Below, one piece after another: positions 1-39,072 of a stretch of DNA of 64,000 nucleotides. The DNA comes from Mayamaea pseudoterrestris (lineage: Eukaryota): the NCBI GenBank assembly GCA_027923505.1, contig BROI01000009.1, forward strand, positions 806,001 through 870,000, written 5' to 3'. A program made the position numbers and the translations under genes. Each line of letters begins with the position of its first letter. Within the stretch, counting starts at the first letter, position 1. The notes beneath the pieces are model-generated. The model was given only the letters and a program-made list of their open reading frames with translations, did no database searches and was not told the origin of the DNA.

Positions 1-159
1 GCGCTGCCAACTGACGACTTGAACAAGATGCTTGATATTCAAAGCAGCATATATCATCGGAACGTTAAAGACCTGAAAGCCTGATGATATTTCTATTCTA
101 GGAAAGAGCACAGTGAAGGCAGCCATGATTTGACTTCTGCGGCCGGCGCCGAGGACCAT
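1..159 (-). CDS. 5' part of DUF3605/GIG1-like gene (runs off the window start)
   Basis: Near-identical to 33179-33337, the 5' end of the complete copy. Confidence 0.55.
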   Translation of the reverse strand, partial: MVLGAGRRSQIMAAFTVLFPRIEISSGFQVFNVPMIYAALNIKHLVQVVSWQR

Positions 160-451
160 GTTGATGGATGTCCCTGCAGATGGTACGTGATACGTCACCG
201 GGAGAACTAGCTCCTATTAGGGATGCCTTGTAGCGTTGTTTGTTTAAATTCCTTGCAAGATACTGTAGTTGCGTGCCGTGAAGGACGGAAGTGCCTGCAC
301 ATGCAAGATTTGCGACGCGACGGAAAATGATCACCTGTCGGAGCGCAACTGAATCTGTCATAGCGGTAATCAGTCATTCGCGGCCCGCGCCGCTGCGCGC
401 GATTTTGTCAATCCAAAAAAAAACGATCATCCGACATCCGACGGCGCAACC

Positions 452-1816
452 ATGGTGCAGGTCCATCGCCTCGCGACGCCCCGCAGTCGCACCAAGCCTC
501 ATCTTGTATTGAATGGAACCAAAATACTTTGTGGCGTGATCGTTCTGATTTGCGTCATTCTCTTCATCGAAACGTCAACAAGCACGACGAGTCGACCTGA
601 TGCTGCAGCTCGATCGTCCTTACTGCAGCTTCGCACGAAGAACGCCGATGACGTCTCGCAAAAGAAGGGATTAGCTACAGTTGCTTTTGCTGTAAGCATT
701 ACCGGATGTGGTTCTGATCCGATCACGGAAGGAGCTGCAGTATTAATGCACTCCATTCATCGAGCATCAGTGCTCGGATCGCTTGGCGGAAAGTACGACT
801 ACGACTTGTTTGCCATTTACCACCCGCAGGCTGCAGAATGTGCAAAGCCACTACAGAAGCTTGGGTGGAAATTGCTTGAAAGAGATGTTTTTGTAAAGGT
901 TAGCGACATTAAAGGAGACTATCTGCGCGAAAAGATTGAATCAAATGGATGCTGTGGAGAAAAGGAACTGATCAAGCTTGAAGCGTATACGCTCACCGAC
1001 TATCCCATTGTCGTACACCTTGATCTTGATGTATTGGTATTAAAGCCCATGGATGACGTCTTTGACATGATGCTGGCGACAGAGCCAGTCGATGCGGCCC
1101 AATACTCGGACGTTTTGATGCAGTATCCACCGCAAACAACGCCTGCTCGCATCAACGCCTTCTTCACCTACGACTACAATATGGTCAGTCCTCACACGGT
1201 GCATAAACCAGTACAAGGAGGTCTGATCATTCTTCGTCCCGATTTGCACGTTTACGAGGAATTTCGGCAGATTGTTTTGGAAGGTGACTTTCGCTCGAGC
1301 CAAGGCTCAAACGGCTCTGGATGGGGCGGCAAAGTTGGGCCGTTTCACGGATCCATGACTTTTCAAGGCATTGTTCCATACTACTACAATGTTTTGCACG
1401 AGGGAAAGGAATCACTAGTTTTGAATCGCTGCGTCTACAACCAAATGTGTGACAATCCACGCGACCGTCCGACTAAAAACGATATCGTTTCCGGAACATG
1501 TCGAACGGGAGAAGCAGAATGCGAGGATTGTCGGTCTCGGCCGCTCGAGGACGTAGTGACGACGCATTTTACACTCTGCCAAAAGCCATGGTGGTGTCTT
1601 CCCCATACACAGGATGCGATACAGCACCGACTCTGTCAGAAGCTGACACGCGAATGGTATCGGGTGCGTTCTGAAATGGAACAGTCATGGGGTCGGTCTG
1701 GTCAAGGTGCAGGCAACTATATGCAGGATATTTTCTTTGGATATTGCCAGCACAGTGGCCACCAAGGGTACACACCTATTGGCGAACCATATGGAGCTGT
1801 CAGCAGCAAATTGTAA
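452..1816 (+). CDS. GT8-like (GT-A fold) glycosyltransferase, type II membrane protein, paralog 1, copy A
   Basis: 454-aa ORF with an N-terminal TM helix, ELIKLEAYTLTDYPIVVHLDLD (DxD) and HFTLCQKPW. Confidence 0.8.
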   Translation: MVQVHRLATPRSRTKPHLVLNGTKILCGVIVLICVILFIETSTSTTSRPDAAARSSLLQLRTKNADDVSQKKGLATVAFAVSITGCGSDPITEGAAVLMHSIHRASVLGSLGGKYDYDLFAIYHPQAAECAKPLQKLGWKLLERDVFVKVSDIKGDYLREKIESNGCCGEKELIKLEAYTLTDYPIVVHLDLDVLVLKPMDDVFDMMLATEPVDAAQYSDVLMQYPPQTTPARINAFFTYDYNMVSPHTVHKPVQGGLIILRPDLHVYEEFRQIVLEGDFRSSQGSNGSGWGGKVGPFHGSMTFQGIVPYYYNVLHEGKESLVLNRCVYNQMCDNPRDRPTKNDIVSGTCRTGEAECEDCRSRPLEDVVTTHFTLCQKPWWCLPHTQDAIQHRLCQKLTREWYRVRSEMEQSWGRSGQGAGNYMQDIFFGYCQHSGHQGYTPIGEPYGAVSSKL

Positions 1817-2284
1817 TTGATGGTATTGCAACACTTGTTATACGCGAGCCAGGCAGAAACGGCGCCGATGAAGCACAACCTAAAGCATCCAACGTGTTTT
1901 CGCACTGCTTAAAGGTGCTTAATGACCGTCGACTACGACCAGACATTTGAGCCCTGTCTCGTTTCAGTTGCCATTTGGAAATAATATCCACGGCGACTGC
2001 CCGTGCTGCACGTGAGACTTCATTTAAGTATTGAAGCGTTTATTTTAACAAGTAGACTTTGCGCAAAAGAACCTCTATTTTCAATTCGCAAAGAGTTGTA
2101 TTATTCAAACAGACGAATACCAGCTGCACACTTTGGTAAACAGATCAACTACCGGTACCGGTAGTAGCGTAAACAAGGTTAGTCGCAGCGCAACTCATTG
2201 TGACATGCGACTTTTCCGTCGGCGACCTACAATTACAACGATGAAATTGTGGATGAACTTATCATCGGCCCCAAGTCCGACGCC

Positions 2285-3676
2285 ATGAGTTCAGCTCAGC
2301 GCACTCGGATTTTTGGATCAACAATGAACAGATATACAACATATCTGGCTGTATTCATTATTTTGCTCTTGGTTGCCGTTGTCTTCACCATCGAATCGAA
2401 CCAAAAGCTTTTGATGCCTGCGCAGATCGATGATGTGTCGCTGATTTTTGCCGGCGATCTTACAACGCAAAAGCTCGCTTCGAGACCTATAAAGGTCGCG
2501 TACGCAGTATCAATCACGTCGTGCAACTCGGGACCATATGCGACTTCCTTAGCAGATGCGGCAGCCGTCTTAAAGCATTCGATCCATCGCGCATCAATTC
2601 ACGGAACACTCGGCGGTCGCTACGACCACGACAGCTTTGTCATCTCTTATCCTGGTGCAAAAGAATGCTCAGCTGCTTTGGAAGATTTTGGATGGAAAGT
2701 GATAGAGCGACCAATCTTGGTCAACGTAAGCGAAATTCGAGGCAACCACATGCGAGAGAATGTCGACAACACGGGGTGCTGCGGCTCAAAGGAGTTTATA
2801 AAACTTGAGGCATATACAATGACTGATTACCCAATAGTTGTACATCTGGACCTTGACACTTTGGTTCTGAAACCAATGGATGACCTATTCGACGTGATGC
2901 TGAACACGTCGCCAACTATCGGCGCTGATCATTACAAAAACTTTATCATGCAGCATAGCAACAAGAATCAAACGACAATTCCCGATCGCGTCAATGCTTT
3001 TTTCACTTACGACTACAACATGGTTACGTCAAGTACTGTATATAAACCCGTACAAGGGGGCTTGATTGTTGTGAGGCCTGATCTCAATGTGTATGAAGCG
3101 TTTCGCCAAATTGTACTTGAAGGGGATTTCCGCAGTGGAGAAGAGCGAAATGGCATTGGTTGGGGCGGAAAGGTTGGACCATTTTATGGCGGCATGACCT
3201 TTCAAGGCATAATTCCCTACTATTACGATGTTCTTCACCCTGGGCAGGCTCTTGAACTAAATCGATGCGTCTACAACCAAATGTGCGACAATCCCCGGGA
3301 GCCGGTTGCAGAAAACAGCACCATACCAGGGAAATGCTTAACGAATGAAACCGAATGCGAAGACTGTCGCGCTCGTCCCGTAAATGAGATTGTAACGGCT
3401 CATTACACCATTTGTCAAAAACCCTGGTCATGTCATGCCCATGCCGAGGAATCCATTGGACATCAGCTTTGCCGTAATCTTATGCGTGAATGGTTTCGCG
3501 TACGCTCTGAAATGGAGATTTCTTGGGGCCGCAAGGGACTGGGAGCGGGTAGTTACGAACCAGACATTTTCTTTGGGTTCTGTCGCGGGCATGGCGACTT
3601 TAGTTACCTTCCGATTCAGCAGCCGTTTGGTCGACCTTTGGCCATCAACTCAGATGGCCATAACACAACTTTATAG
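2285..3676 (+). CDS. GT8-like glycosyltransferase, paralog 2, copy A
   Basis: First ATG gives MSSAQR. TM anchor, EFIKLEAY...VVHLDLD and HYTICQKPW. Tandem paralog of 452-1816. Confidence 0.8.
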   Translation: MSSAQRTRIFGSTMNRYTTYLAVFIILLLVAVVFTIESNQKLLMPAQIDDVSLIFAGDLTTQKLASRPIKVAYAVSITSCNSGPYATSLADAAAVLKHSIHRASIHGTLGGRYDHDSFVISYPGAKECSAALEDFGWKVIERPILVNVSEIRGNHMRENVDNTGCCGSKEFIKLEAYTMTDYPIVVHLDLDTLVLKPMDDLFDVMLNTSPTIGADHYKNFIMQHSNKNQTTIPDRVNAFFTYDYNMVTSSTVYKPVQGGLIVVRPDLNVYEAFRQIVLEGDFRSGEERNGIGWGGKVGPFYGGMTFQGIIPYYYDVLHPGQALELNRCVYNQMCDNPREPVAENSTIPGKCLTNETECEDCRARPVNEIVTAHYTICQKPWSCHAHAEESIGHQLCRNLMREWFRVRSEMEISWGRKGLGAGSYEPDIFFGFCRGHGDFSYLPIQQPFGRPLAINSDGHNTTL

Positions 3677-4499
3677 ATATCATATTAACGTGCTGCCACT
3701 GTTAGGCATACTATAATTGCAAGAATTTCGTCGCCAAGTAGATGAACCCCGCACGTAAGAAGGTTACAACTGCATTTTTCCTGTCGCAACACTTTATCGC
3801 ATCGGTTACTATGTAATTCCGACCGAAGGGAGATGCTAGCTTCAGAGTTTAAAAAGGTCTCGACACTCTTTGAATTTACTCTGACTAATTTGTTTTTAAG
3901 GAGGAGCAAATACGCGAGTGCTTGGCAATCACTCTAACCTTGCATGCCACTTTAGTATTACCTAGCTAGCTTCCTCGTGCTCAAAGAAACAATTGGTGCA
4001 ATTGGAAGCGAAATCTGTGCCATCCATACTACGGTAGATAGGGACACCTTACTGTACTGTAATTGTCGGTATTTTACTATCCTGCATTACTTTCTTGTCT
4101 ACCGGTAGTACGAGAGAATAGCAAATTTTGTTAGCAGTGCCGGTAGGTCATGAATCATCAGCCCCGGGCATGATGCGTATCATAGCTCCCGTGTCTCTTT
4201 CCTTCGCCTCCATTGTTCTTTAGCTTCTCATTTTACTGCCTCACTGTTGCAAGTTGGAGGGTGGTCGACGGAGTGACATATATGATACCGGTATTAGGTA
4301 CATGTGTAGGTCAAGCTGAGTAGATTCGAACGCTATACCGACACTTACTTCAACAACATCGTCACTTTCTATCAACGTCATTTTTCAGCTTCAAGATGAC
4401 CCTGCCTTCGTAAAAAGTGCAAGCAGAATGTCCCCAATCATCGCTTTACAATAGCCTGCAGGGGTACGTCAGCCTTGCGAATTGTGTCCGCATTAAGTG

Positions 4500-4731
4500 C
4501 AATCAGCGTGGGCGCTGATTGCCCTCTGTCGCTCGGCTGCTTCGTTCTTCCAAAGTGTTGCGCGCGTTGGCGCGCTTAGACTTGCTCGTGCCTCAGGTGG
4601 CTCGACGAGTGTAGCGAGAGTCGGGTCGCATGGTCTGAGGAACACGGAGTGGACTCCGGGTTCCCAGAGCAGGAGACACGTCATGGATGACGCCTGAGGA
4701 GAATCCTGTCTTGCAGGATTCGCCACAACCC
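4500..4731 (-). repeat. Split direct repeat B2 (3' terminus of the element)
   Basis: Direct repeat of 4975-5205 with only a few differences. Confidence 0.92.
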
Positions 4732-4746
4732 GGGTGGGTGGGCGGG

Positions 4747-4974
4747 AACAAAAACGGAGATGCTATTGCTAACAAGGGTGCAAGAGCTGATCCGAAAGGA
4801 ATGGCTTGCCGCTGAAAGCCGATGGCTTGGAGGGATGTCCAAGTGTCGCAGCAGCAGTCTCAATGTCCTAGCGGCAATCTCAATGTCATCCAAACTGTGT
4901 CTGCTACTGTACCCGTAGGTTTCCTACGGGTAGTCCCTAGGGCGGGCTCCTCTGTGCATCCGCTCTAAGCCGGA
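4747..4974 (-). repeat. Split direct repeat A2 (internal)
   Basis: Matches 13062-13233 apart from a 56-nt insert at 4790-4845. Confidence 0.92.
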
Positions 4975-5205
4975 CAATCAGCGTGGGCGCTGATTGCCCT
5001 CCGTCGCTCGGCTGCTTCGTTCTTCCAACGTGTTGCGCGCGTTGGCGCGCTTAGACTTGCTCGTGCCTCAGGTGGCTCGAAAGTGTAGCGAGAGTCGGGT
5101 CGCATGGTCTGAGGAACACGGAGTGGACTCCGGGTTCCCAGAGCAGGAGACACGTCATGGATGACGCCTGAGGAGAATCCTGTCTTGCAGGATTCGCCAC
5201 AACCC
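4975..5205 (-). repeat. Split direct repeat B1 (internal)
   Basis: Direct repeat of 4500-4731. It abuts A2, so the junction ccgga|caatca reproduces the joined element ends. Confidence 0.92.
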
Positions 5206-5476
5206 ACACGACTCAGCGAGCAAGGCTGAAGGCGTCAAGCCACAACAACAGAGTGCCTGTGGCAAGAACCGCGGAAAGGAAGAAGAAGGAAGCAGGGGAA
5301 AGAAAGGAGAAAAGGTCCTGGTCAGTGCAATGTTGGGAAAGGGAGGACGTCAGGTGAGGAGCGCCAGGACGATCTGAACTCGGGGGAGTCAGTGCCCTTG
5401 GATGCAAACTTGAATTGTCCAATCCTCAAGTTCCCAATGCAAGAAAGAATGGGTAAATGAAAAGGTGTATTTTTAA

Positions 5477-6778
5477 TTATAGCATTATTGCGCCTTTAAT
5501 GGCATTGCTGGTAAGTGTACCAATTTTTTCTGAACATTCGCGTAAATAATGGTGCACCGAAGGTGGTGACCAGCGTAAGCGAAACGCTATTTCTTCAATG
5601 CTCATACCAGAGTTATTGAGTGCTACTGCAGCAGTAACGCGATTTGAATGAGCAACAATTCGTGTAATGTTGAGTCGTAGGAAGTGGTTTGGATTGGGGT
5701 AAGCGCCAATCACTGCCTGCCGCATTACCCGGATTACGTCGCGCGCTTTGAGGTAATGGTAGTCGCCATTGTTGTTGTAGCGAAAAACTCCAAGTGGTTC
5801 TGCGTATGGTGCCTTGTGAAGAATTTTGGCACGTAGAATCAGCGAAATGCTGGCCCGTATAGGGCAGATAAATTTATGGCCCGAGCGTCGAAACTTGCGA
5901 ATCGTAAAATTGTTTTGGCTTTTGTCAAACCGGAAACGAATGTGTAATTCATACGCACTTTCGCCTGCTTTATGTAACATGGAATGTGGCAAGAGAACGT
6001 TGCATTTTGTATAAAAAACAAAGTCGAGGTCCACAAAGCCTAATGGCCAACCTGCCCATTGACCAGCGTCTCTGCTGTTGGGTACTTTGCTAAAATGGCC
6101 ACGTTTGGCAGTGGACTGTGCATATTCGTTAGCGCGTGATCCTGTGAATACGCCAAGGCAAGTCCAGTCAAGAACAGAGGCTTCCAGATCCAGGTGCGCA
6201 GTTGTGTCCGTGGTTGCTGCTGCACAAACAGACTGGTAGAGGAAGTCAAACATGCGATGCGTGTATGGCTCGCGTTTTTCCTTGGTTGTTTGCCATTTCC
6301 GACGACTGTCCAGAATATCAGCCAGTAAGGGATGGTGGCCCGAGCCGCGAGGATCTTGGATCGAAAATCTGCGTTGTACAAAAGTCTCCAGGAATGAATG
6401 GGCTGAGTTCAGGTAAGTTACCAATGATTTGGTGCAGAGAGGCGTGGGATCTTGTTGGGTGGCAAATTTTTGTGATTTCTTTTTAGCCAGCAGCGATTGT
6501 CCCCTTGAAACAACATCAAACATGTATGCGGCAATTACCGAGATTTCTTGCCCCGGTGCGAGCGCTGTAAGAGACTCGTCCGTAAACCCTGCGTCGATCG
6601 CCCATTCACCAAAATTTTTGGCGCGGCTGTCAAATGTTTTATCGTTTTTGGACCGTATGTCGCCTCGTTCGCGCTCCCGTCGATCACGGAGGAGATTGTC
6701 AAAAGCAAGTCGCGCTCCACTCGGTAAATGCTGCATGTTGCTAGCGCCTGCGTTTCCGGCGTGATAACGGACTCCCAC
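5477..6778 (-). CDS. Tyrosine recombinase of the retrotransposon
   Basis: Catalytic residues present: FTGSRANEY (R), FDKSQ (K), HSNR (HxxR), RWS...HY (W, Y). First ATG at 6736. Overlaps the end of the RT ORF. Confidence 0.9.
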   Translation of the reverse strand: MGVRYHAGNAGASNMQHLPSGARLAFDNLLRDRRERERGDIRSKNDKTFDSRAKNFGEWAIDAGFTDESLTALAPGQEISVIAAYMFDVVSRGQSLLAKKKSQKFATQQDPTPLCTKSLVTYLNSAHSFLETFVQRRFSIQDPRGSGHHPLLADILDSRRKWQTTKEKREPYTHRMFDFLYQSVCAAATTDTTAHLDLEASVLDWTCLGVFTGSRANEYAQSTAKRGHFSKVPNSRDAGQWAGWPLGFVDLDFVFYTKCNVLLPHSMLHKAGESAYELHIRFRFDKSQNNFTIRKFRRSGHKFICPIRASISLILRAKILHKAPYAEPLGVFRYNNNGDYHYLKARDVIRVMRQAVIGAYPNPNHFLRLNITRIVAHSNRVTAAVALNNSGMSIEEIAFRLRWSPPSVHHYLRECSEKIGTLTSNAIKGAIML

Positions 6779-9594
6779 GACTCCGTCGAGGTTTTGAAGC
6801 GAGAAAGTCGGTCCGCCTCCACATTGTTGGCTCCCGGCAAGTGACGTCCCTGGATGCAGAAAGTGAGACAGCTGTAAGTGGTGATGGCCTGTAAGAATCG
6901 TGCCAGCCTACGAATTTCAGGATCCCGGCTGCGCGCAGCGTGACGCATCCAGGAAAGGGCCGAAGTATTGTCGGCCAAGACGCTAATGACATGTTGGTTG
7001 TGTTTGGTTTGTGGATTTGCCATTAAAGCACTCAGCGTGAGAATCACATTTATTATAATGGCAATGAACTCCAGAATGTTGATATGGAGGGGATCACCAG
7101 TGGTGTGATGTGCCAATTCATGGAATGCTCGCATTGGAATGTTACAACTGAGCAGGTCCGATGCGTTGAGGCACCACATAAACAAGAGCTCAATATTCCA
7201 GCCTCCAACGCCAGACATGCTCGCATCACTTTTCATGGTGTTTGTTGGTACCCTTGGAATGAGCAGACCAATTGGCTTGCGCCATACGTGTGACCATTTG
7301 TCCGTGTTTAAAGTTGGACGTAAAATGCGCAAGTCGGCCAGTGCCTCCTTTGATATAGCAATCCTTGTTTTGCTCCACCATTGACGGCGAGCATAGTTCG
7401 CATTGGGGCTGGAGCGAAATGCTGCGTCGGCTTTACTTGCTGCGTCAGTGAGAGACTGCTGTAGGCGGATGGAAAGGAAATCGGCGAGATCACTGACTAA
7501 AGTTCCATGGCATATTAAACCCAATATTTCTGCCTTTTCCACTGGCGTGACTGTAATGTAATCAGGCCGAAAACCGGTTGGTTTGTCACTGAGGCGATCA
7601 ATGAGAGATGCCAAGCGTGCCTGTTTGTCCGCAGGCCAGGACAATTCCATACGGCGCGAATCCCAATCAAGACCCAAGTAGAGCAGTTTGTGTGAAATTT
7701 CCATTTTCCATTTGCGTGGGTTGATACATAAAGCGCGTCGCGCTGGAGTTGGTTCACCAAAAACAATGCGAGCCGCAATGACGCTTCTGGTAATTGCGTT
7801 CAAAATCGTGCCGCGTGTCGCCGCGACGGCTTGATCGTCGACAAAGCTGGAAAAGCCAAATCTATAGTCGCGTCCAAGTATTGAGCGAACACCCGTGTTC
7901 TTTGAGTCTGCCGTTGACTGTTGAAATGTTGCAATGGTCTCGTTGGTGGGCTCGTCGCTTAGCACTATTGTGTTTGACAGGTCGGTGGTGGCCTCGCCAA
8001 TATCAAGGAGCGCAGCAATCTGGCTGCGTAGTTCACCAAGTATCATGTAGTATCCTGGTGAATTTCGTGCGCCAAAAATTAGCCCCACCGGGACGACAAG
8101 AAATGGACCAAGGACGGATGCAAAAGCCACAGCAATGTCTGGGTGGTAGTGCAGCCAGCGGAACGCAGCTGATATGTCATCAGCAGCCAGAAAAATCTCA
8201 TCGTCCGGATTATCGAGGCGCATGTTATAAATTAGCTGGAGATAGCGGCGCAGCACAGTGCCGTAATACACTCTTGGATTGAACTGGTCACTGTCTGGGT
8301 GGAGAGAGTCTGGAATTTGCTTGTTGATCATGCCTTCGTCTGTTGTTGTAATTGGATTTGATGGATCGCATACAATCCGCCCTTCGTCACCAAGACGGCC
8401 CACTTTTGGAGGGATGTAGGAGATAATGGCAAGGAACAAGCCTGGGATAAACTTCCATAGAAAGCGAGGAAACATTATGTGGTATGACATTTTTTCTTCC
8501 TTGCGGAATTTGTCCGTTACGTCGTCCCAGCACTCGTCCAAACGACGGTTGTCAAGCTGTTCTCGTGCACGAACATCCTCAAATTTGCCAACAAAGTTGC
8601 TTTTACCTGGAACGCCTTCATGAATAATGCGTATTGCTTCATCCAATTTCACCGGTGGATAATCCGGTGGGCGCGAGGCAGTGCGTAGCGTTTCCACGAC
8701 ATCACAGAGTAGCGAGCGATCTTGGTGCTGGTAGGTGTATTCACCACCAAGCCAGCGCAGTAAGTCACCATAGTTAACGTCAAAGCGTAGAAGGGCTGCA
8801 CCCATGTCATTTGCTCGAGTCATGCTGATAGGTGAATCGTCGTCCGCCGGAAACAGGCGTGGCACACGTAGGTGTGGGACGGCTCGTGCTGTTGCACGCT
8901 GGCGCAGAAGTGCATATTTTTCCCAACAAGGTTCAACAGCAGCCATTGTTTGGCGATCTGAGACTGTAAGCCACTGCCATACAAGGTGTAAGGCCATGTG
9001 GTGCGATGGCTGTGCGTGTCGCGTCGAAATATCAGGAGTCGCTTTGCCCCAACCAAATTTTCGTCGAAGCCAAATGCGTGGATCAGGATGCATGACGGTT
9101 GTTGAACCAAAGACTGGATGTAAGAAATCAGGATATGCAGACTGTAGGGTTGCTGATTCAGTGTCCGTTAAAAATTGCCAAACTGGGGCCATGATGGTTG
9201 CCAGAAAGTGATCCCAATTGTATCGCGTCACAGAAGAGGCGCGAGTTGGTTTGCGATGTGTGCATCGGAGGAGTCGAACTGGCCGCGCACCAGTTGTTGG
9301 AATGTGTGGCAGAATGTTGCGCAGGGATTGGTTGCAAATGGATACGGAGGCTGGAGTCGACGGTGGGACCGTGTGCCTCATCTCCACGAGAGTGTTTGCT
9401 GTTTCAATCCGCGGGTGATGGCAATTGTGTCGTCTCAGCGTTGTTGCAGCAGTCCAGTTCAATGTTAATTTGTGTGATTTTTCTATAGTTGTTATGTAAA
9501 AAGGCACAATTGGGATAAGTTGAGCTTGGCCCATCCTGTGCTGCTTGTGCGCCCGCCGGCGTCGCCGACAATGTGTCGAGATCGAGTGTTTCAC
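6535..9594 (-). CDS. Reverse transcriptase-RNase H of the retrotransposon
   Basis: RT motifs DDISAAF, LIFGARNSP, FVDD, YLG. DIRS-type RNase H motifs SDAS, HINILE, ADN, HLPGANNVEADRLSR. No methyltransferase domain evident. Start codon uncertain. Confidence 0.92.
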   Translation of the reverse strand: MKHSISTHCRRRRRAHKQHRMGQAQLIPIVPFYITTIEKSHKLTLNWTAATTLRRHNCHHPRIETANTLVEMRHTVPPSTPASVSICNQSLRNILPHIPTTGARPVRLLRCTHRKPTRASSVTRYNWDHFLATIMAPVWQFLTDTESATLQSAYPDFLHPVFGSTTVMHPDPRIWLRRKFGWGKATPDISTRHAQPSHHMALHLVWQWLTVSDRQTMAAVEPCWEKYALLRQRATARAVPHLRVPRLFPADDDSPISMTRANDMGAALLRFDVNYGDLLRWLGGEYTYQHQDRSLLCDVVETLRTASRPPDYPPVKLDEAIRIIHEGVPGKSNFVGKFEDVRAREQLDNRRLDECWDDVTDKFRKEEKMSYHIMFPRFLWKFIPGLFLAIISYIPPKVGRLGDEGRIVCDPSNPITTTDEGMINKQIPDSLHPDSDQFNPRVYYGTVLRRYLQLIYNMRLDNPDDEIFLAADDISAAFRWLHYHPDIAVAFASVLGPFLVVPVGLIFGARNSPGYYMILGELRSQIAALLDIGEATTDLSNTIVLSDEPTNETIATFQQSTADSKNTGVRSILGRDYRFGFSSFVDDQAVAATRGTILNAITRSVIAARIVFGEPTPARRALCINPRKWKMEISHKLLYLGLDWDSRRMELSWPADKQARLASLIDRLSDKPTGFRPDYITVTPVEKAEILGLICHGTLVSDLADFLSIRLQQSLTDAASKADAAFRSSPNANYARRQWWSKTRIAISKEALADLRILRPTLNTDKWSHVWRKPIGLLIPRVPTNTMKSDASMSGVGGWNIELLFMWCLNASDLLSCNIPMRAFHELAHHTTGDPLHINILEFIAIIINVILTLSALMANPQTKHNQHVISVLADNTSALSWMRHAARSRDPEIRRLARFLQAITTYSCLTFCIQGRHLPGANNVEADRLSRFKTSTESWESVITPETQALATCSIYRVERDLLLTISSVIDGSANEATYGPKTIKHLTAAPKILVNGRSTQGLRTSLLQRSHRGKKSR

Positions 9595-9604
9595 CTTGGT
9601 GGAG

Positions 9605-12600
9605 TCAAGATGATGCCGTGTTAAACACAGCTGAAGTTTCCAAAATGGCCGCTACCGCTGGCTTGCGAAAAAATTCAAGAAGCGGGCGAAGTTTCTCGCG
9701 CGTCCAAGTTCCAGTTGGGTCTGGAAGCACAATGTGGTGGCGTGGACAGTCTTTTACATCGCACCCGGGGGATCCATGCAGCGCATGGAAAAGGCATAAT
9801 TGTTTTCCTTCAAACACTGGAGCTCGGATTGGGGGAGTGCGGCGACTCAAATGTTGAAAAAGTTTCCGAACTGCGGCACCGGAACAGTCGGTGCCATCAC
9901 GCCAACGTGCCAACGAAGCAGGAGCTTTTAAATACGTACCGGTTGTTTCGCGCTTTTGTGCGGCTGAATTCTGTTGGCTGGCGCCACCTGTTGAGGTTTT
10001 TGGTTGGGTGGACGACTTGTCGTGATGTTTTGCCTTCTCAGGCAGGACGTCCGTGGGGGCTTGCCGTTTAAAAGGCCCAAAATTGGGCAATTCCTTCGCT
10101 GTAAGATTTTCAATGGTAATGCCCCTCATGGTGCTGGATCGCCATGCTGCAAGTGCCTCACTTAAGGGTTCAAAGCCATTGTTGTCTAAAAACATTTTGA
10201 ACGCGCAGACATCGGAGCGTGACTGCTGGGAGTGAAGCAGTACTCGCACACAATGATCATCGGAGTCGAGTGACATGGCCCAGTCAATAACAATGCGCCA
10301 TAAATTGCAGATAGAGTTGATGACAGCAATTGAGCAAGTTAGTTTTCTGTCGGTCGACATGTTGGACCATGTTTCGTGCAGCCGCTGGTTAGCGAGGAGC
10401 TGGATCAGCCAAGCTAGTTGACCAGCGAATGGAGATGCAAGTAGCCAAGGTGAGAGTTCAGGATGTACCTCGCGCAGTGCTGGGAATCGAACTTGGTTTG
10501 TGAAGTGGATATGGAAAAACCATGCGATATTCTTCGTCAGTTGCGCTAATTTGGCGCAGTCCAAGCCATCCTGTGTGAAGCGGTGCCCAGTTTTTTGGAC
10601 CGTTTGAATGAAGCTCCATGGGCTGATATAGGAATCAAAGGTGCAGGTTGGATCATCGCCTGCAAAGAAAAGGCCTGATTGCAGTGCTTTTATGTTATCA
10701 GGTGTGGAGAAGAAGTCGTTGTTGGCAAAGCTCGGTCGCGCGTAAGATTCCATTGTGGAGTTTTGAGCGGCGCGAAGTTCGTTGCTGAAATGGTTTGTCA
10801 CGTGGCCTGGAATTTTCGACTCGAGTACGTTTAAAGTGTACTTTTTTGACACGTAGCCTGGGATGAGAACTTGCCAATCTGGGAAACGATGTCCTTTACT
10901 GTCGTCTCGTGGACCCATGTGAAATCTTGGATCGACAGCAATGGCTCCAAAATGAGCAGCCAGGACAATAGCGTTGGAGAGTCCATCCTCCACGTAGGCT
11001 TGGCGATTAAATCGGTCGGGTTGCGAAGAAGTGGCCGGAAAGAGAAAATCAATGTTGCGAGAGAGCATCTTTGTGCCCATTGTAAAATATGGCAACAACT
11101 GGGTGTGTGGTTGCTCGTATGGCAGCAGAAACGTTGAGTTTGAAGTTGTTGTAACTGTATTGCGCGCAGGTAATTTAAATGACATTCGCGGTGGCGAGTG
11201 CTGTGCCGGTTTTGTGCCAAGATAGTCCACCGACTTGTCGTCAGTGTAGGCCTCGTATTCGATGTCCATGTAGCCAAGCTTCTGTTGCGCGCTATAGTCA
11301 AACAGCGCCTTCCTCTTGCGGCGCGAATCGGGTGGTGAAGGTGGATTTTTTGACATTGCAGCGCGTGATTGTTCATCTTCCGCCACAGTGGGCGCCCGGT
11401 TTGGTGTTGCTACTGTATGCGAGAAGCCCATGGCCGCTAGAATATCCAATGCTGCTGGAGCCGGTTGGCTATCTTGTTTTGCAGCAGATGACGGAGATTG
11501 CGCATCTGAAATTTTGTCTTTTAATTCGATGCGCAGCGAAGCAATAAAATCGTCGGAAGATTCCGCCGGCAGGTCGACACTTGCAAACCGATTCCAATGG
11601 GGCAGCAAATTTTGGCGAAGGAAAGGAATATGAAAGTTTTCAATCCACAACTTTGCCTTGGGATTGACGAGCAATGGCAAATGGATTGTGTCCATGAGAT
11701 ACTCTTTATTCCACTCAGCAATGTCGGGTGACTGCTGGAGAATGGCCATTCCTTTTTGCTCATAAAGCGTTAGCTTGTTTCCCCACTGTTTTGTGAGTGA
11801 ATGCCGGAGGTAATCCCACATCCAACTGAAGCGGATCTTTGTTTCCGGATGGAGAATGGCAAGGTGCGAGTCCAATGATTGCTCAAGTTTCCAACTCTCC
11901 CAGGACTCGTGCAATTGTGCCATGAACAAAGTGTCAAGCTTCATGGCCGCCGCCTGGGTGGCGCATGCTGCAAGAAAAGTATCCAAAATTGGATTATCAA
12001 TCATCCAAGCGTAGGCCTCGTCTGGTAGCTCCGTGAACTCCATGCAGAATGCCTTGAGGAGCGCTCCAGTGTGGCAGCGCAAGTGATCGAAAGGGACCCC
12101 AAGTGGGATGCCGTGATGGCCTTTTGGTATGAACAGCGCACGTTGCTGCACAAGCGTGCGCAGGTCGGGCATATTTTCCGTTGTCACAGGACGCTTCGTT
12201 GTCACAATCGCGAAAGGTTTGTCGCCAGAAGTGAAAGTGGGAGGCGTTGGTCCCAGAAAATACTTGCCAGCAGGGTGATCCTTTGGAATGTCCTCTTTGT
12301 GGACCAGGAAGCAAGCTGGCTGGGTCAATTTTAAGCCATTGGCAAAGACCAAGGCGTCGTGCAGTACTTCGGAATGCCGAGTCGCAGGAGCAGTCACCAA
12401 AGTGGCGCGCGTGTTTCTTGTCAAAATTGACACAACTGGGTTGACGCTGGATGGAGCCGCGACGTTCAGTGGCTGCAAGTGAGACCAAGCTTCCAACAAG
12501 AAGGAAGGTTCCTTGGCTCCGGCAGATGTATCCAATGCGTCCAAAGTGGCTTGGTTTGTTTGAAGTAAAAAGGCATTGCCGTTGGCAGTACCAGAGGGCG

Positions 12601-13015
12601 CCGCAGAGCAAATCAAAGCGTGATTGGCGTCGAGCACTTGCCCTGGAATCGAAAAGCTCGAGAGAGTAATCATAGCGCCAACGTTGGCATTGCCCATCAT
12701 TTTGAGCTTGTCAAGTGCGCCGAGGTAAATGTCGCCGGCGTCGTCGTCAGGCTCCTTTGTCTTGACCGACATGCGCTGGTTGAGCGCATAAAACTCCTCC
12801 TTTGTCAACCATTTGTGGAGCACTTTTTCCTTGTCCTTCTCCTTGTCCCAGCTTCCATCAAGCTGGAGCTCCATCGCCTTGGCGCGCTCTCCTTTAGGAG
12901 GAACATTATCCGTTCCAAGCCACGTGGTCGGCAAGGCAATCTCCTCCGGCCATGAAAGGGCCACAGGAGCGCCCCCGAACTCAGCTAGGGAAGGAAAACG
13001 AAGACGAATGAGCAT
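9605..13015 (-). CDS. ORF1 (gag-like) of the retrotransposon
   Basis: About 1136 aa from the first ATG at 13015. C-terminal CCCH-type finger CLFHALHGSPGCDVKDCPRHH. First-ORF position in the element. Confidence 0.8.
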   Translation of the reverse strand: MLIRLRFPSLAEFGGAPVALSWPEEIALPTTWLGTDNVPPKGERAKAMELQLDGSWDKEKDKEKVLHKWLTKEEFYALNQRMSVKTKEPDDDAGDIYLGALDKLKMMGNANVGAMITLSSFSIPGQVLDANHALICSAAPSGTANGNAFLLQTNQATLDALDTSAGAKEPSFLLEAWSHLQPLNVAAPSSVNPVVSILTRNTRATLVTAPATRHSEVLHDALVFANGLKLTQPACFLVHKEDIPKDHPAGKYFLGPTPPTFTSGDKPFAIVTTKRPVTTENMPDLRTLVQQRALFIPKGHHGIPLGVPFDHLRCHTGALLKAFCMEFTELPDEAYAWMIDNPILDTFLAACATQAAAMKLDTLFMAQLHESWESWKLEQSLDSHLAILHPETKIRFSWMWDYLRHSLTKQWGNKLTLYEQKGMAILQQSPDIAEWNKEYLMDTIHLPLLVNPKAKLWIENFHIPFLRQNLLPHWNRFASVDLPAESSDDFIASLRIELKDKISDAQSPSSAAKQDSQPAPAALDILAAMGFSHTVATPNRAPTVAEDEQSRAAMSKNPPSPPDSRRKRKALFDYSAQQKLGYMDIEYEAYTDDKSVDYLGTKPAQHSPPRMSFKLPARNTVTTTSNSTFLLPYEQPHTQLLPYFTMGTKMLSRNIDFLFPATSSQPDRFNRQAYVEDGLSNAIVLAAHFGAIAVDPRFHMGPRDDSKGHRFPDWQVLIPGYVSKKYTLNVLESKIPGHVTNHFSNELRAAQNSTMESYARPSFANNDFFSTPDNIKALQSGLFFAGDDPTCTFDSYISPWSFIQTVQKTGHRFTQDGLDCAKLAQLTKNIAWFFHIHFTNQVRFPALREVHPELSPWLLASPFAGQLAWLIQLLANQRLHETWSNMSTDRKLTCSIAVINSICNLWRIVIDWAMSLDSDDHCVRVLLHSQQSRSDVCAFKMFLDNNGFEPLSEALAAWRSSTMRGITIENLTAKELPNFGPFKRQAPTDVLPEKAKHHDKSSTQPKTSTGGASQQNSAAQKRETTGTYLKAPASLARWRDGTDCSGAAVRKLFQHLSRRTPPIRAPVFEGKQLCLFHALHGSPGCDVKDCPRHHIVLPDPTGTWTREKLRPLLEFFRKPAVAAILETSAVFNTASS

Positions 13016-13061
13016 GATGATGATGATGAGGAAAGAAAGCGGTTTGAAGCTACAGGCAAGA

Positions 13062-13233
13062 AACAAAAACGGAGATGCTATTGCTAACAAGGGTGCAAGA
13101 GCTGTCGCAGCAGCAGTCTCAATGTCCTAGCGGCAATCTCAATGTCATCCAAACTGTGTCTGCTACTGTACCCGTAGGTTTCCTACGGGTAGTCCCTAGG
13201 GCGGGCTCCTCTGTGCATCCGCTCTAAGCCGGA
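13062..13233 (-). repeat. Split direct repeat A1 (5' terminus of the element)
   Basis: 172 bp matching A2. Host sequence gaccgaagccgag resumes at 13234. Confidence 0.92.
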
Positions 13234-13372
13234 GACCGAAGCCGAGCGAACGCCAGCGAACAGTCAATAAAGAATCGAAGCCCTTTCTAGTTGAAGTTAG
13301 ACTGCAAGCCAGATTAAACATCTCACAAAACTTTCGATCGCGCCGATTAATCCATCGCCCATCATCCCCACC

Positions 13373-14038
13373 ATGATCTGCTCGTCAATAAAGCGAGCGT
13401 CAGAACTTAACAACCATGGCATTAACTTGCTTGTCGCAGGGCATTCACAAGAGGCAATGAATACTTTTCAGAGTGCGTTGTCAGGTATCAAGGAGATTGT
13501 AAGCGATCAAGATCCAAGCCTCCATTCCGACACATCAATGAGCGTCGCCCCTACCCAAAGATTTATCAGCGAGAGCCCTTTGATTCTACATACACTACAT
13601 ACGGATCAGTCATTTGTTTACAATCGACCCTTGGTGATTGACGAGATTGTGTCGATTGACGATCTCGATTCTACCTTGGCACTACTGAGCGCCGCCATTC
13701 TTTTCAATCTCGCCTTGGTGTGCCATCAAATTGGACGAGAAGGCCAAGAGAAGGCACTCAAGCGCGCATCGGTACTGTACAGAATGAGTTTGCAGCTACT
13801 TCAAAACTGCGAGGCGAATGAATGTACCACTGTCATTTGTCTCCTCGCGCTCAACAATCGAGCGCAGATCCATTATGAGCTCTGCGACTACTCGCAGAGT
13901 GGACATTGTTTAAAGCAAATATCTAAGATCATGCACGACGATGTTCGTTTGCATGAGTCTTTGAACGCAGCAGACCTTGAAGGTCTTTTGCTGAATGTGA
14001 TGCTTCAAGATCCACCATCGGCTGCTCGAGCCGCATGA
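13373..14038 (+). CDS. Hypothetical helical-repeat (TPR-like) protein, copy A
   Basis: 221-aa ORF, protein-identical in copy B despite synonymous changes. LNNxG, ILFNLAL and LNNRAQI helical motifs. Confidence 0.7.
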   Translation: MICSSIKRASELNNHGINLLVAGHSQEAMNTFQSALSGIKEIVSDQDPSLHSDTSMSVAPTQRFISESPLILHTLHTDQSFVYNRPLVIDEIVSIDDLDSTLALLSAAILFNLALVCHQIGREGQEKALKRASVLYRMSLQLLQNCEANECTTVICLLALNNRAQIHYELCDYSQSGHCLKQISKIMHDDVRLHESLNAADLEGLLLNVMLQDPPSAARAA

Positions 14039-14864
14039 TCTCGTTGCTTGCTATCCATTTCACAACAAACCCATCAACTATTCGGTCATATACAACCTGT
14101 ATCTGCTATACGCGCCGCCTGCTAAGTGGCAACTGTTAAAATAAGGTACCAATTTTTGCTAATCTCCATATGAAATTCCGTATTTCTATAATTTGTCACT
14201 GCGCTGGGAATGGCAGGCACATATGCATCATGTATTCATATCTTTTAAGTCTTCAACGACTGGAACAGAAAATCAAATTGAAGGATATATACTTTGACAC
14301 GAGTAAGTTGCGCGGTGCGTCTTTGAGTTAACGTACATATAGCCCATCCAACAGCCCATGACATTGCATTTTGAAGGCGAGTATCTTGCGAAACGGCCTT
14401 GACAACCGCTTCTTTGAAGTTTGGTCGGTTCTTCGCATGCCGATGAACCAACTGCACGTAATATTCGTGACCGCATTGACAGTGAGTAGGATGCGATACA
14501 TCACCGGCACACCATCACCGTAGTTGGCGATGAACCTGGCCCACTTTGGATTGATACCTGCTGTACCATGTATTTCTAAGCATTAAAAGTTTGGTTCCGA
14601 TGCTGAGACCCCATCGACACATTGGAAACTCATTTGCATAATTGCCAAGATGTGCAGCGATTCGTCGGTTTTTTAATCGTAACTGCGAACTTTTACGGTG
14701 CTTGCACTTTTCTTCGTAAACTACGATAGCAAAAGTCGCTCCAGAAACGGTACGACATATCGTACCAGTAGACAGATCCTTTCGCTTGGTGCGACGACGA
14801 CACATCACATCCTTCACCTTTCCCCACTCGTTTGGTTGCTGCGATCAGGTAAATTTCAAGTAGA

Positions 14865-15695
14865 ATGTCCTCTGGAGTCGACTACTCCAAATGGGACAAG
14901 TTAGATTATGGATCATCTGACGATGAGGGCAGTGGCAGCGATCAGGGTCAGGCTGAAAGTGATGTTCGTGGTCAGCAACCGCGCGTCACTAGATTCGACC
15001 AGCCCTCCACAATTACCCGAAATGTAGACGGCGAGCTCATTGTGGAAACCCAGCATGACGCAGGGGAAATGGTAGCGTTGACAGAGTCGCTTAAGTACCC
15101 AAAGGAGTCTACCGGTACCGGTAGAGCTGACTCCGCTTTTGCCGATGAGAACCCCACAGACTCCGCCTTGGCGAGCAGTCTGTCGAACGACACTGCTACA
15201 ATACCAAAGACATGGACTGAAAAGGGCTCTTTTGAGATTGTCCAAGGATGCGAAGTTTATTGGAGTCAAGATCGCTACTCTGTAATGATTCGCATCGCGC
15301 TTCCAGAGGAAGGAAAGTGGACCTGCGTCGTCTCAAGTCTGCTGGCATACGCCGATCGATTTGTTGCCGTTGGGAGCGGACCAAAATCATTATTGGAAGT
15401 TTGGCGAGCCGATTTAACAAATTCTGTATTGATGCGGTCGGAAATTGCTTATCCTGTTCATGCTACGGAAGATGACGAAGGGGTAGACTGGTCCATCGAA
15501 CGCATCGGCGTTCAGAGATTTCTGTCAGTCACGTTGAACAAAGCCACGCCAATGGCTGGCATGACGCTTTGGTGGAAGCGTCCACTCTCGGAAATGAAGG
15601 AAATATCGATGGATTGGAGGGAACCATCGTCAACGAGCTTTCAGAAAGTATGGAATGAAGCTCATGCACAATTTTACGACAAGCATCGAAACTAA
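14865..15695 (+). CDS. CS-domain (p23/NudC-like) protein with an N-terminal DYSKWD motif
   Basis: 276-aa ORF. YWSQDRYSVMIRI ... VDWSIE ... LSVTLNKA ... WWKR is typical of a CS domain. Confidence 0.7.
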   Translation: MSSGVDYSKWDKLDYGSSDDEGSGSDQGQAESDVRGQQPRVTRFDQPSTITRNVDGELIVETQHDAGEMVALTESLKYPKESTGTGRADSAFADENPTDSALASSLSNDTATIPKTWTEKGSFEIVQGCEVYWSQDRYSVMIRIALPEEGKWTCVVSSLLAYADRFVAVGSGPKSLLEVWRADLTNSVLMRSEIAYPVHATEDDEGVDWSIERIGVQRFLSVTLNKATPMAGMTLWWKRPLSEMKEISMDWREPSSTSFQKVWNEAHAQFYDKHRN

Positions 15696-26465: not shown

Positions 26466-28139
26466 CGGCCGCATCGCATTCACCGGTAGATCCGTTGCTG
26501 GACGCATCGACGAACGACCGCCGCAACAATGAATGTAGTGTCGTCTGCAGACAATATTAAATTCAACTTTTCGTCCTGATGCATCTGACAAGTCAGGCAG
26601 CGGCGAACAATATCACGTGTGGCAACTGAAGGGTCGATTCCGCTCACGATAAGCTGCTGAGTCGTTCCACGTTTGAGTGCATCAGCTAAAGAGTTCTGAA
26701 GATCAATGTAAACATGGACATTTGAAAAAATCTTATTTGCGGCCAAAGTACTCGCGTTGATCGCATGCGAGCGCCAGTGAGTATTCGCTGTCGCCTTGCA
26801 AATGCATCATGTCGCCAAGGGTGGATTGGGTTCATGCACCTTCAGACCGTTCCCGAACAATGTGCTTGCAAGTCAATGTAGATCGGCCCAGTCATGAACG
26901 CGTCATTACGCCGCTTCGTATTCCTGCTGTGAATCTTCTCCGTGTTATAATGCTTTTCAACACCGATGGGTTTTCATAGCGTTACGCCATTGTATAAGTT
27001 TGACGGGTGTCGTTTGTCAAACAGCAGTGTGCTCCAGTGAGATCACCTTGTAGTATCGTAAACGACTGGGAAGTAGCTCGTGATCATTTCCTTGCAAACA
27101 GTAAGGTGAGTCTGGGAGCGTCGGCGAAACAAAGTGCGTCATGAGAAACAAGATATCCATAAACCCATTGTGAACAGCAAGTGGCACTCTTCGTCCTGCC
27201 ACGCTGGTTCAACCGCATCAAAATCGACAGTGTCAAAGGATATGGCGCAAACAAGGGTGACTGCATCGAGAGCGGTGCCCGCGACATGCTCGCGACAACT
27301 TCAAACACCCTCCACATGCCGACATTCATCTTCCAAGCCTCGCGCTGAAGTTTCACCTTGCGCTCGCAGCACTAACTCGGAAAGACGCAACACGCGAATG
27401 TGCCCTCCTCCGCCATTTCCAAATCGGTCGGGGTACTCTCGCTCGATATTTTCGTACAGCGCCCGCCGCAAAAATGCGTACGGGAGGGCAGCAACCAGCG
27501 TCGTGGTAGACTGGTTGAACATTCCACCGCATTGTCAGGCCATTCTCGCAAGGTTGCCATTTGGTGGTCGCAAAAAATCGAACGTCATCCGTTCGAGTCA
27601 GTTCCTGGTACGGCGCAAGGTTTGCTCCACTGACTGGGATGATCGCTTGGTTTGCTGTTGCTGCTGCTCCTCTTGGTGCTTGATTGCATAATCGGCAATG
27701 ATTTGCTCTGCCAGTCGCCTGTAACGTAATTAACGCCTTGCTTGGTCCACAGGTCAAAGCTCATAATTGTGCTCGTTCAAAAGGCAACGCTGGATGGATT
27801 GAGAACAACCTCTCGGCAGAAGCATCATCAGCGAGCTGACGACGACGGAAACATGTAAAAAGAAGTTGTAGGAACGAACAGTCCATGAGTTCCGTAGCAT
27901 CAATGGCTTGATTCGCCGATGGCAGAGTCTTGGCCACAGCAGCAACAGCAGCTGCAACGTAAATCCCTCCATTTATCGCCTTCCTCTTCCTCGTCATCGC
28001 TGGGCGCCTCTGCTTTGACCGGAGACGCCACTATATTCGAATGAAACAATGGAAACTTAATTGTATAATGCTGTATCGTTCCGGCGCTCGTTTTCAGGAT
28101 ATGTAATTTTGGGCAGCAAATCTTTGCGGGGTGGACCAC
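26466..28139 (-). other. Probable frameshifted hypothetical gene, cut at the 26465 junction
   Basis: Chain of overlapping short minus-strand ORFs with protein-like composition and no recognisable family. Confidence 0.35.
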
Positions 28140-32494: not shown

Positions 32495-32534
32495 ACGAAA
32501 TAGCAGACTTCATCGAGTACTGAAAGTTAACTTA

Positions 32535-33337: not shown

Positions 33338-33619
33338 GTTGATGGATGTCCCTGCAGATGGTACGCGATACGTCACCGGGAGAACTAGCTCCTATTGGGG
33401 ATCTTTGTTGCGTTGTTTGTTTATATTCCTTGCAAAATACTGCAGTTGCATGCCGTGAAGGACGGAAATGCCTGCACATGCAGGATTTGCGACGTGACGG
33501 AAAATGATCACCTGTCGGAGCGCAACTGAATCTGTCATAGCGGTAATCAGTCATTCGCGGCCCGCGCCGCGCGATTCGTCGTCATTCAAAACGATCATCC
33601 GACATCCGACGGCGCAACC

Positions 33620-36850: not shown

Positions 36851-37814
36851 ATATCATATTAACGTGCTGCCACTGTTAGGCATACTATAATTGCAAGAAT
36901 TTCGTCGCAAAAGTAGATGAACCCCGCACGTAAGAAGGTTACAACTGCATTTTTCCTGTCGCAACACTTTATCGCATCGGTTACTGATGTAATTCCGACC
37001 AAAGGGAGATGCTATTATCAGAGTTTAAAAAGGTCTCGACACTGTTTGAATTTACTCTGACTAATTTGTTTTTAAGGAGGAGCAGATACGCGAGTGCTTG
37101 GCAATCACTCTAACCTTGCATGCCACTTTAGTACTACCTAGCTAACTTCCTCGTGCTCAAAGAAACAATTGGTGCAGTTGGAAGCGAAATATGTGCCATC
37201 CATACTACGGTAGATAGGGACACCTTCCTGTACTGTAATTGTCGGTATTTTACTATCCTGCATTACTTTCTTGTCTACCGGTAGTACGAGAGCATAGCAA
37301 ATTGTGTTAGCAGTGCCGGTAGGTCATGAATCATCAGCCCCGGGCATGATGCGTATCATAGCTCCCGCGTCTCTTTCCTTCGCCTCCATTGTTCTTTAGC
37401 TTCTCATTTTACTGCCTCACTGTTGCAAGTTGGAGGGTGGTCGACGGAGTGACATATATGATACCGGTATTAGGTACATGTGTAGGTCAAGCTGAGTAGA
37501 TTCGAACGCTATACCGACACTTACTTCAACAACATCGTCACTTTCTATCAACGTCATTTTTCAGCTTCAAGATGACCCTGCCTTCGTAAAAAGTGCAAGC
37601 AGAATGTCCCCAATCATCGCTTTACAATAGCCTGCACGGGTACGTCAGCCTTGCGAATTGTGTCCGCATTAAGTGGACCGAAGCCGAGCGAACGCCAGCG
37701 AACAGTCAATAAAGAATCGAAGCCCTTTCTAGTTGAAGTTAGACTGCAAGCCAGATTAAACATCTCACAAAACTTTCGATCGCGCCGATTAATCCATCGC
37801 CCATCATCCCCACC

Positions 37815-39045: not shown

Positions 39046-39072
39046 TTTTCTCCAAGAAGCGAGTGAAAAGAC

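Follow-up and report, generated by a model that had tools for sequence, protein, structure and literature searches.

Two copies of the same flanking sequence stand in one stretch of diatom DNA, one of them interrupted by 8.7 kb and the other not, which raises the question of what was inserted, how, and when. The stretch comprises 64,000 nucleotides (nt) of Mayamaea pseudoterrestris (contig BROI01000009.1, positions 806,001 to 870,000 of the forward strand) and is called the window here; the interrupted flank copy is termed A and the uninterrupted one B. We find that the interruption is very probably an autonomous retrotransposon of the DIRS order with a Ngaro-type layout, inserting by means of a tyrosine recombinase. 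Reading transposition from the sequence, we also consider it a real, probably recently active new family of a known kind.

To define the insertion, we aligned the filled and the empty site. Copy B lies ~33 kb downstream of copy A and is 96-98% identical to it. The left flank (1-4499) matches 33179-37675 at 96.5% identity and the right flank (13234-14461) matches 37676-38903 at 98.2%, and the insertion is therefore exactly 4500-13233, an 8734-bp element whose sense strand is the minus strand. A preliminary description of the locus had claimed an insertion of this size missing from copy B, and the flank alignment returns it to the base. In the empty site, the final base of the left flank directly adjoins the initial base of the right flank, and this one insertion, the only one examined, is thus without a target-site duplication. 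We also considered a crossover inside a shared TAAG core, which was rejected since the empty site it predicts mismatches the one observed. When the element was compared with the 64-kb window by BLAST, only the element itself and its own internal repeats were matched.

Within these ends, the sense order is A1-[ORF1-ORF2-ORF3]-B1-A2-B2, where ORF denotes an open reading frame and the A and B segments are split direct repeats. The internal stretch 4844-5080 equals 13103-13233 joined directly to 4500-4605 with no extra base, and the B1|A2 junction at 4974/4975 thus corresponds to the joined termini of the element. No pair of inverted repeats of at least 40 nt was found in 3500-14500. The outer end of B (4500-4521, and again in B1 at 4975-4996) is made up of a perfect palindrome of 9 bp around 4 nt, situated right at the recombination junction, and the fold of the junction region gave a z of -3.45; this palindrome may be a binding site for the recombinase or a hairpin in the complementary DNA. 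The repeats themselves vary. The extra 54-nt block of A2 (4790-4843) is bordered by a 2-nt microhomology, and contigs of two public runs (X1 and X2) contain another A variant in which 4806 is joined to 4933 and 126 nt are skipped. The A repeat thus varies in length from copy to copy.

All three ORFs are open in minus-strand frames and amount to 2.6 thousand amino acids (aa). By predicted fold and conserved residues, ORF2 is a reverse transcriptase (RT) of the retroviral/long terminal repeat (LTR) type followed by an RNase H. Its AlphaFold model, built on the alignment, had a mean predicted local distance difference test score (pLDDT) of 78, with residues 126-1000 confident. Foldseek against PDB yielded 36 matches at E<=0.001, the best at 8e-8 to the enzyme of cauliflower mosaic virus (CaMV), and the top ten were all reverse transcriptases (CaMV, foamy virus, Ty3, xenotropic murine leukemia virus-related virus, human endogenous retrovirus K and Moloney murine leukemia virus, MMLV). 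Alignment by VIA-align reached a Z of 14 overall at a root-mean-square deviation (rmsd) of 2.8-3.0 A; for instance, the fingers-palm fragment of MMLV superimposed on model residues 324-651 with Z 14.2 and rmsd 2.8 A over 224 residues. The p66 subunit of human immunodeficiency virus 1 RT could be aligned over model residues 281-937, its RNase H included. In an alignment of 27 sequences, D473, D586/D587 and D790 were invariant and D472, E842, D875 and D928 nearly so, and FG..SP, SDAS (D790), DNT (D875) and AD.LSR (D928) were conserved as further motifs. When the set was widened to 33 sequences (20-33% identity), D473, D586/D587, D790, E842, D875 and D928 were all invariant. Our homologue search with ORF2 scored 7999 candidates; 68 reached E<=0.001, all of them free of precomputed Pfam domains. 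The nearest clusters in the protein atlas were unnamed, 9 of 30 matches falling in a cluster with RVT_1 on 46% of its members. ORF2 ends ~85 residues past the RNase H motif at D928-R932. This leaves no room for a methyltransferase domain, and no Pfam match to a methyltransferase was found anywhere in the element.

ORF3 is, according to its model and its conserved residues, a Cre-like tyrosine recombinase. The R-K-H-R-W-Y set (R215, K286, H377, R380, W403 and Y411) was invariant in 27 of 27 sequences. The model (pLDDT 84) matched Cre recombinase best, over both domains, with E 8.5e-5, a probability of 1.0 and a template modeling score of ~0.6 on the target; all 22 Foldseek matches at E<=0.001 belonged to the Cre family (Cre and Cre-derived Tre), with XerA and the Tn1549 integrase ranking lower. 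The homologue search gave 311 proteins at E<=0.001 among 7197 candidates, and no Pfam domain was present in any of the 120 listed. For both ORF2 and ORF3, the ratio of nonsynonymous to synonymous substitution rates (dN/dS) was ~0.1 in a comparison of two relatives. Eleven other ORFs of at least 100 aa in the element had no Pfam match. The three main ORFs occupy 5480-13015. A DDE integrase too divergent for Pfam could strictly still be encoded.

ORF1 is putatively a nucleic-acid-binding, Gag-like protein, as its position and a C-terminal CCCH motif suggest. The three Cys and the His of this motif were invariant in 8 of 8 aligned ORF1s, which are otherwise only 18-22% identical to the present one. 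Homologous ORF1s measure 1118-1288 aa in five related loci (L002, L005, L007, L039 and L026) and 741-791 aa in three others (L069, L070 and L079). ORF1 had no Pfam match and found nothing at 0.9 or more in the protein atlas; dN was 0.35 and dS saturated between the two relatives compared. Relative to ORF1, ORF2 lies in the +1 frame with a 44-nt overlap, and ORF2 in turn shares 370 nt with ORF3, which is read in a different frame. Five related loci differ in that ORF1 and ORF2 are in frame with each other, interrupted by one TGA that CTC follows. We found this single in-frame stop in L002 (3597-3599), L003, L010, L005 (5532-5534) and L007, and a TAA in its place in L079 (2975-2977); all six are candidates for stop-codon readthrough that would yield an ORF1-ORF2 fusion. 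The present copy retains TGA CTC, with ORF2 read in the +1 frame, and a frame check thus led us to reject readthrough from ORF1 into ORF2 here. Contigs from four public runs, including copies that are 2-3% different, show no indel within 9200-9650, and the +1 arrangement is therefore a family trait rather than a private lesion. The features are collected in Table 1.

Table 1. Features of the element and of its target, in window coordinates.
Feature	Position	Strand	Description
Whole element	4500..13233	-	8734 bp, without target-site duplication; from filled/empty alignment
Empty site in second flank copy	37675..37676	.	From alignment of flank copies
Target-side motif TCCGCNNTAAG	4487..4497	+	2 nt from insertion point; matches A terminus (4959-4969, 13218-13228)
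A1, 5' split direct repeat	13062..13233	-	172 nt; 100% identical to A2 in two blocks, without 54 nt of A2
ORF1	9605..13015	-	1136 aa from first ATG (13015), TGA at 9605-9607; stop to stop 13126-9608
CCCH zinc-knuckle-like motif, ORF1 C-terminus	9734..9796	-	C1074-x10-C1085-x4-C1090-x3-H1094
ORF2	6535..9651	-	Stop to stop 9651-6538 plus TAA; first ATG 9534; N-terminal helical part, predicted RT and RNase H
RT fingers and palm, ORF2 residues 320-651 (predicted)	7642..8637	-	DDISAAF (D472/D473), FGARNSP, FVDD (D586/D587); from fold and invariant residues
RNase H, ORF2 residues 785-935 (predicted)	6790..7242	-	D790, E842, D875, D928, ending ADRLSR
ORF3	5477..6907	-	Stop to stop 6907-5480 plus TAA; first ATG 6736; R215, K286, H377, R380, W403, Y411
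B1 split direct repeat	4975..5205	-	From repeat comparison
A2 split direct repeat	4747..4974	-	228 nt; 54 extra bases at 4790-4843
Spacer between A2 and B2	4732..4746	-	15 nt
B2, 3' terminal split direct repeat	4500..4731	-	98-100% identical to B1

Taken together, the repeat order A1-[ORFs]-B1-A2-B2, the RT/RNase H, the recombinase and the lack of a methyltransferase indicate a Ngaro-type architecture. The element has the features of the DIRS order, namely an RT with RNase H, a tyrosine recombinase in place of a DDE integrase, and neither a protease nor a target-site duplication. It also has those of Ngaro, with the split repeat order, co-oriented Gag-like, RT-RNase H and recombinase genes, and no methyltransferase. 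ORFs that do not overlap are typical of Ngaro without defining it (PMC3266345); here they overlap. The methyltransferase-like domain in pol that would mark PAT-like elements is missing, having neither room nor a match. DIRS1-like elements possess inverted terminal repeats and an internal complementary region, and the repeats here are direct. A Crypton is a recombinase DNA transposon without RT, and in the present family the RT/RNase H ORF is conserved together with the recombinase. Much of this had been anticipated: the preliminary description had placed the repeats in the same order and at the same coordinates, had read three uninterrupted ORFs with an RT/RNase H protein preceding a tyrosine recombinase, and had argued from the absence of a methyltransferase for Ngaro rather than PAT, all of which holds, the last as an assignment at the level of layout. 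Its claim that the layout is a hallmark of PAT/Ngaro stands in part, in that the repeat order does fit Ngaro but VIPER-like elements also have split direct repeats (PMC6681497).

Several results weigh against this assignment. None of ORF1, ORF2 and ORF3 had a significant Pfam match, the best being PF00589 for ORF3 at E 0.038. When 27 ORF2 relatives were scanned singly, a weak RVT_1 match appeared in two (best E 0.017) and one to RVT_3 in a single relative, and among 32 more distant ORF2 relatives none gave an RT or RNase H match at E<=0.01. PDB sequence searches with the element proteins returned nothing relevant. Curated families thus lend next to no support at the sequence level, and it is from predicted folds and motifs that the enzymes are assigned. 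The split repeats, moreover, are not identical (the 54-nt indel between A1 and A2, and differences at 4 of 232 aligned positions between B1 and B2), and the model expects identity at insertion. The overlaps themselves, 44 nt for ORF2 in the +1 frame and 370 nt for ORF3, also count against it. Lastly, no listed contig from the four public runs bridges either filled junction.

This last point bears on whether the insertion could be an assembly chimera that does not exist in the genome in its present form. The preliminary description had looked to reads across both junctions for confirmation, and none was forthcoming, as no listed contig spans 4499/4500 or 13233/13234. Contigs of X1 and X2 even pass from 4499 into 13234, with a shorter side of only 30 letters, below our bar of 31; copy B alone predicts that empty form. 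Two runs, from two studies, contain more than 60% of the words sampled from the stretch, and the repeated A and B segments interrupt their contigs, as must happen with short reads. Loose contig ends at 4974/4975 and 13235 lead into other flanks, as expected if further copies exist elsewhere. Runs X3 and X4, whose kind is not given, cover mostly the interior of the element and hardly its flanks, and we draw nothing from this. With no listed contig bridging the filled junctions, the support for the insertion comes from the assembly and from its ends, which agree to the base with the internal junction. A misjoin would not place its breakpoints, to the base, at the ends set independently by the B1|A2 junction, and we regard a chimera as very improbable.

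Related sequences surround the element on several scales. Its host was confirmed as a diatom, as had been claimed, with the closest proteins coming from M. pseudoterrestris, a raphid pennate. The best ORF2 match is another M. pseudoterrestris hypothetical protein, from another copy, that is 96.6-98% identical over ORF2 and ORF3, and six more proteins of this species, each on a separate contig, are 51-61% identical. M. pseudoterrestris hence contains at least seven further annotated family members. A third homologue search, made with a wider alignment, gave 17 matches including one additional Mayamaea protein. Beyond the host, a profile search of 1.84 billion representative proteins returned 8422 matches at E<=0.001, some of which, near that threshold, may belong to other RT families; stricter thresholds left 2924 (E<=1e-10) and 833 (E<=1e-30). 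In metagenomes, 122 pattern matches yielded 95 related stretches, and 80 were kept as loci; the 14 pattern matches on viral contigs included no relative. In 22 of the 23 related loci of at least 5.5 kb, the recombinase lies 3' of the RT gene, the exception (L073) ending soon after the RT. Repeat pairs resembling B1/B2 were found downstream of the recombinase in five of the 23 (L001, L026, L058, L064 and L069); most related contigs stop near the repeats, as is usual for short-read assemblies. On this homology evidence, the family is part of a large lineage that extends to at least one further diatom and to numerous aquatic metagenomes, with RT and recombinase below Pfam thresholds.

Two relatives are unusual in form. 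One, a Nitzschia inconspicua 'hypothetical protein' of 1915 aa (P0325), matches the RT/RNase H profile over residues 703-1497 and may represent either an ORF1-ORF2 fusion or a related element whose gene model was fused. The other is L026, in which 1-8755 is circularly permuted (1-126 equals 8613-8738) and a 423-nt unit is present 1.9 times between ORF3 and ORF1. Such a form could arise from a circle or a tandem, or from an assembly graph that closed via the split repeats.

To place the insertion in time, we compared the two flank copies. The repeated block (1-26465 versus 33179-55669) is present in two copies of at least 17 kb, which differ by mismatches at 328 of 17,174 aligned bases (1.9%) and by indels. 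Copy B has a private insertion at 38906-44000, a 5.1-kb Ty1/copia-type LTR retrotransposon with 87-nt LTRs that are 98% alike and ORFs for zf-CCHC and RVT_2, at the place of which copy A has 664 unrelated bases (14462-15125). Copy B also has ~270 extra bases at 44901-45169 relative to copy A at 16023/16025. The block may be a tandem haplotype duplication in the assembly and not a real segmental duplication. This concerns the earlier report of filled and empty sites in one window: both sites are there, but the two copies may be haplotypes of one locus. If so, the sites would be two alleles assembled in succession and the insertion would be heterozygous, which we rate as slightly less probable than the contrary. 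The level of mismatches and indels fits, and each copy has a private retrotransposon, the present element in A and the Copia element in B. According to the genome paper, the strain is diploid with a heterozygosity of 2.97%, to which the 1.9% mismatch level is close, the assembly was made by merging two Nanopore assemblies with haplotig purging, and 30.6 Mb were assembled against a k-mer estimate of 27.2 Mb (PMC9724779). Pulling the other way, both copies stand on one contiguous sequence, 33 kb apart, and the sequence after copy A (26466-33178) is unlike that after copy B (55670 onward). Between paralogues and alleles the odds are near even; if the copies are alleles, the heterozygous insertion would point to recent activity.

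The element inserted after the two flank copies had split, yet the insertion is not brand new. The preliminary description had called it young and potentially active, and of this the youth is borne out by an insertion that postdates the split and by intact ORFs, but the differences between B1 and B2 and the 54 nt that A1 lacks count against it. These same defects would fit a copy that is intact in frame and nonetheless immobile, an ageing element with damaged cis-acting repeats. The frame arrangement might be added to them, given that in five related loci one frame continues on both sides of TGA CTC and ORF2 here follows the same TGA CTC in +1. Against immobility stand the three open ORFs, the insertion postdating the flank-copy split, and the absence of any indel at 9200-9650 from the contigs of the four runs, which makes the +1 frame a family trait. 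We therefore hold immobility to be unlikely, and continue to view the element as probably recently active.

The published model for split-repeat elements fits this anatomy (PMC6681497, PMC3266345, PMC3783388, PMC8547959). A full-length RNA would be made from A1 to B2 and reverse-transcribed into DNA by ORF2, with the fold and catalytic residues described above. The B1|A2 junction, which is identical to the joined termini, would then restore the ends and join them into a circle, the role that the published PAT/Ngaro model gives it. ORF3 would recombine the circle junction with a genomic site conservatively, in keeping with the absence of a duplication. The target may be chosen by its likeness to the A end of the element. 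The motif TCCGCNNTAAG stands at both A ends of the element, separated from the end by 5 nt, and again at the target, in the filled and in the empty form (37663), where it has the same orientation and 2 nt separate it from the breakpoint. Its 11-mer pattern, derived from the very sequences scored, has 4 matches in 64 kb on both strands where 0.33 are expected, and 0 of 100 shuffles reach 4. By hand calculation, the chance of a 9/11 match within 20 nt either side of one target is ~0.005. For this single insertion, it is suggestive that the target was picked by likeness to the element's own site.

Work on transposable elements in diatoms has centered on Copia (CoDi). Automated tables have nonetheless recorded the DIRS order, listing 'DIRS' in 14 copies for Phaeodactylum (PMC5859163) and the label 'LTR/Ngaro' for Chaetoceros muelleri (10.64898/2026.04.27.720831), and among other stramenopiles Ectocarpus has 'DIRS/Ngaro-like' elements (PMC3145265) and Cafeteria has Ngaros with Pfam-detectable domains (PMC8547959). 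In the Mayamaea genome paper, table S3 assigns 0.32% to 'Gypsy/DIRS1' and 7.36% to unclassified repeats (PMC9724779). Our search of the literature, which left Repbase and Dfam outside its scope, found no curated description of the present lineage. The earlier suggestion of an undescribed diatom lineage is thus kept in part: the lineage does seem undescribed, but the order had already been tabulated automatically in Phaeodactylum and Chaetoceros muelleri. What is new seems to be the lineage, the presence of the order in diatoms being known. With its ends known to the base, its empty site and its three intact genes, this copy is usable as a reference for a lineage invisible to Pfam, and better annotation of diatom repeats would follow. 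It also offers, in a culturable diploid alga, a tractable case for how a recombinase chooses its target and how split repeats rebuild ends.

Whether this lineage belongs within Ngaro is a separate matter from its layout. The architecture could be Ngaro-like and the lineage something else, an alternative to which we give about one chance in three. Fungal and Cafeteria Ngaros are found with PF00078 and PF00589 (PMC3783388, PMC8547959), and here none of 59 scanned members was significant. ORF1 measures ~1100-1290 aa in five relatives, the ORFs of the present copy overlap, and split direct repeats are common to three of the four subgroups (PMC6681497) and so place nothing. For Ngaro speak the ORF order, the co-orientation, the lack of a methyltransferase and the repeat order, all of which fit. 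Invisibility to Pfam is a measure of divergence and not of branching order, and RepeatMasker tags some diatom repeats as LTR/Ngaro (10.64898/2026.04.27.720831), which may or may not belong to the present lineage. We accordingly keep to a Ngaro-type layout. It is doubtful that the family forms a separate deep lineage. Equally tentative is a reading in which a lineage with a giant CCCH-finger ORF1 makes up, probably, part of the 'unclassified' repeats of diatoms and the present copy is heterozygous and very recent.

Among known systems, the element is closest in layout to Ngaro (zebrafish DrNgaro1, fungal elements, and Ngaro1-4 of Cafeteria burkhardae; PMC8547959), with which it shares the A1-[ORFs]-B1A2B2 repeats. 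Also shared are the co-oriented order of ORF1 (Gag-like by position), RT/RNase H and tyrosine recombinase, and the lack of a protease, a DDE integrase, a methyltransferase and a target-site duplication. It differs in length, at 8.7 kb versus ~6 kb, in its ORF1 of ~1136 aa with a C-terminal CCCH motif, and in its ORF overlaps of 44 and 370 nt. The Cafeteria Ngaros are matched by PF00078, PF17919 and PF00589 (PMC8547959), whereas the RT, RNase H and recombinase predicted here fall below Pfam thresholds. PAT-like elements (PAT, Kangaroo and TOC3) have the same split direct repeats and an RT/RNase H with a tyrosine recombinase. They are described as structured like DIRS1-like elements apart from their termini (PMC3266345), which implies a methyltransferase-like domain after the RNase H in PAT. 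Their recombinase is sometimes inverted; in the present element it is co-oriented, and there is no space for a methyltransferase.

VIPER and TATE of kinetoplastids, compared here by description alone, resemble the element in their split direct repeats (PMC6681497), in lacking a methyltransferase (PMC3266345) and in having highly divergent proteins. The repeats and the missing methyltransferase, being common to VIPER-like elements, therefore do not discriminate. VIPER/TATE are reported only in kinetoplastids, and the present element is in a diatom. In VIPER, the recombinase ORF lies 5' of the RT/RNase H. DIRS1-like elements (Dictyostelium DIRS-1) are the same type of recombinase retrotransposon, with an internal match to the joined termini and no target-site duplication, but they carry inverted terminal repeats, an internal complementary region and a methyltransferase, none of which the present element has (inverted repeats of at least 40 nt being considered). 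CryptonS elements of oomycetes and Phaeodactylum (PMC3212892) are also stramenopile mobile elements that move by a tyrosine recombinase. Unlike Cryptons, which are without RT/RNase H or long repeats and whose terminal direct repeats measure 5-6 bp, the element in M. pseudoterrestris combines its predicted recombinase with a predicted RT/RNase H and split repeats of 172-232 nt.

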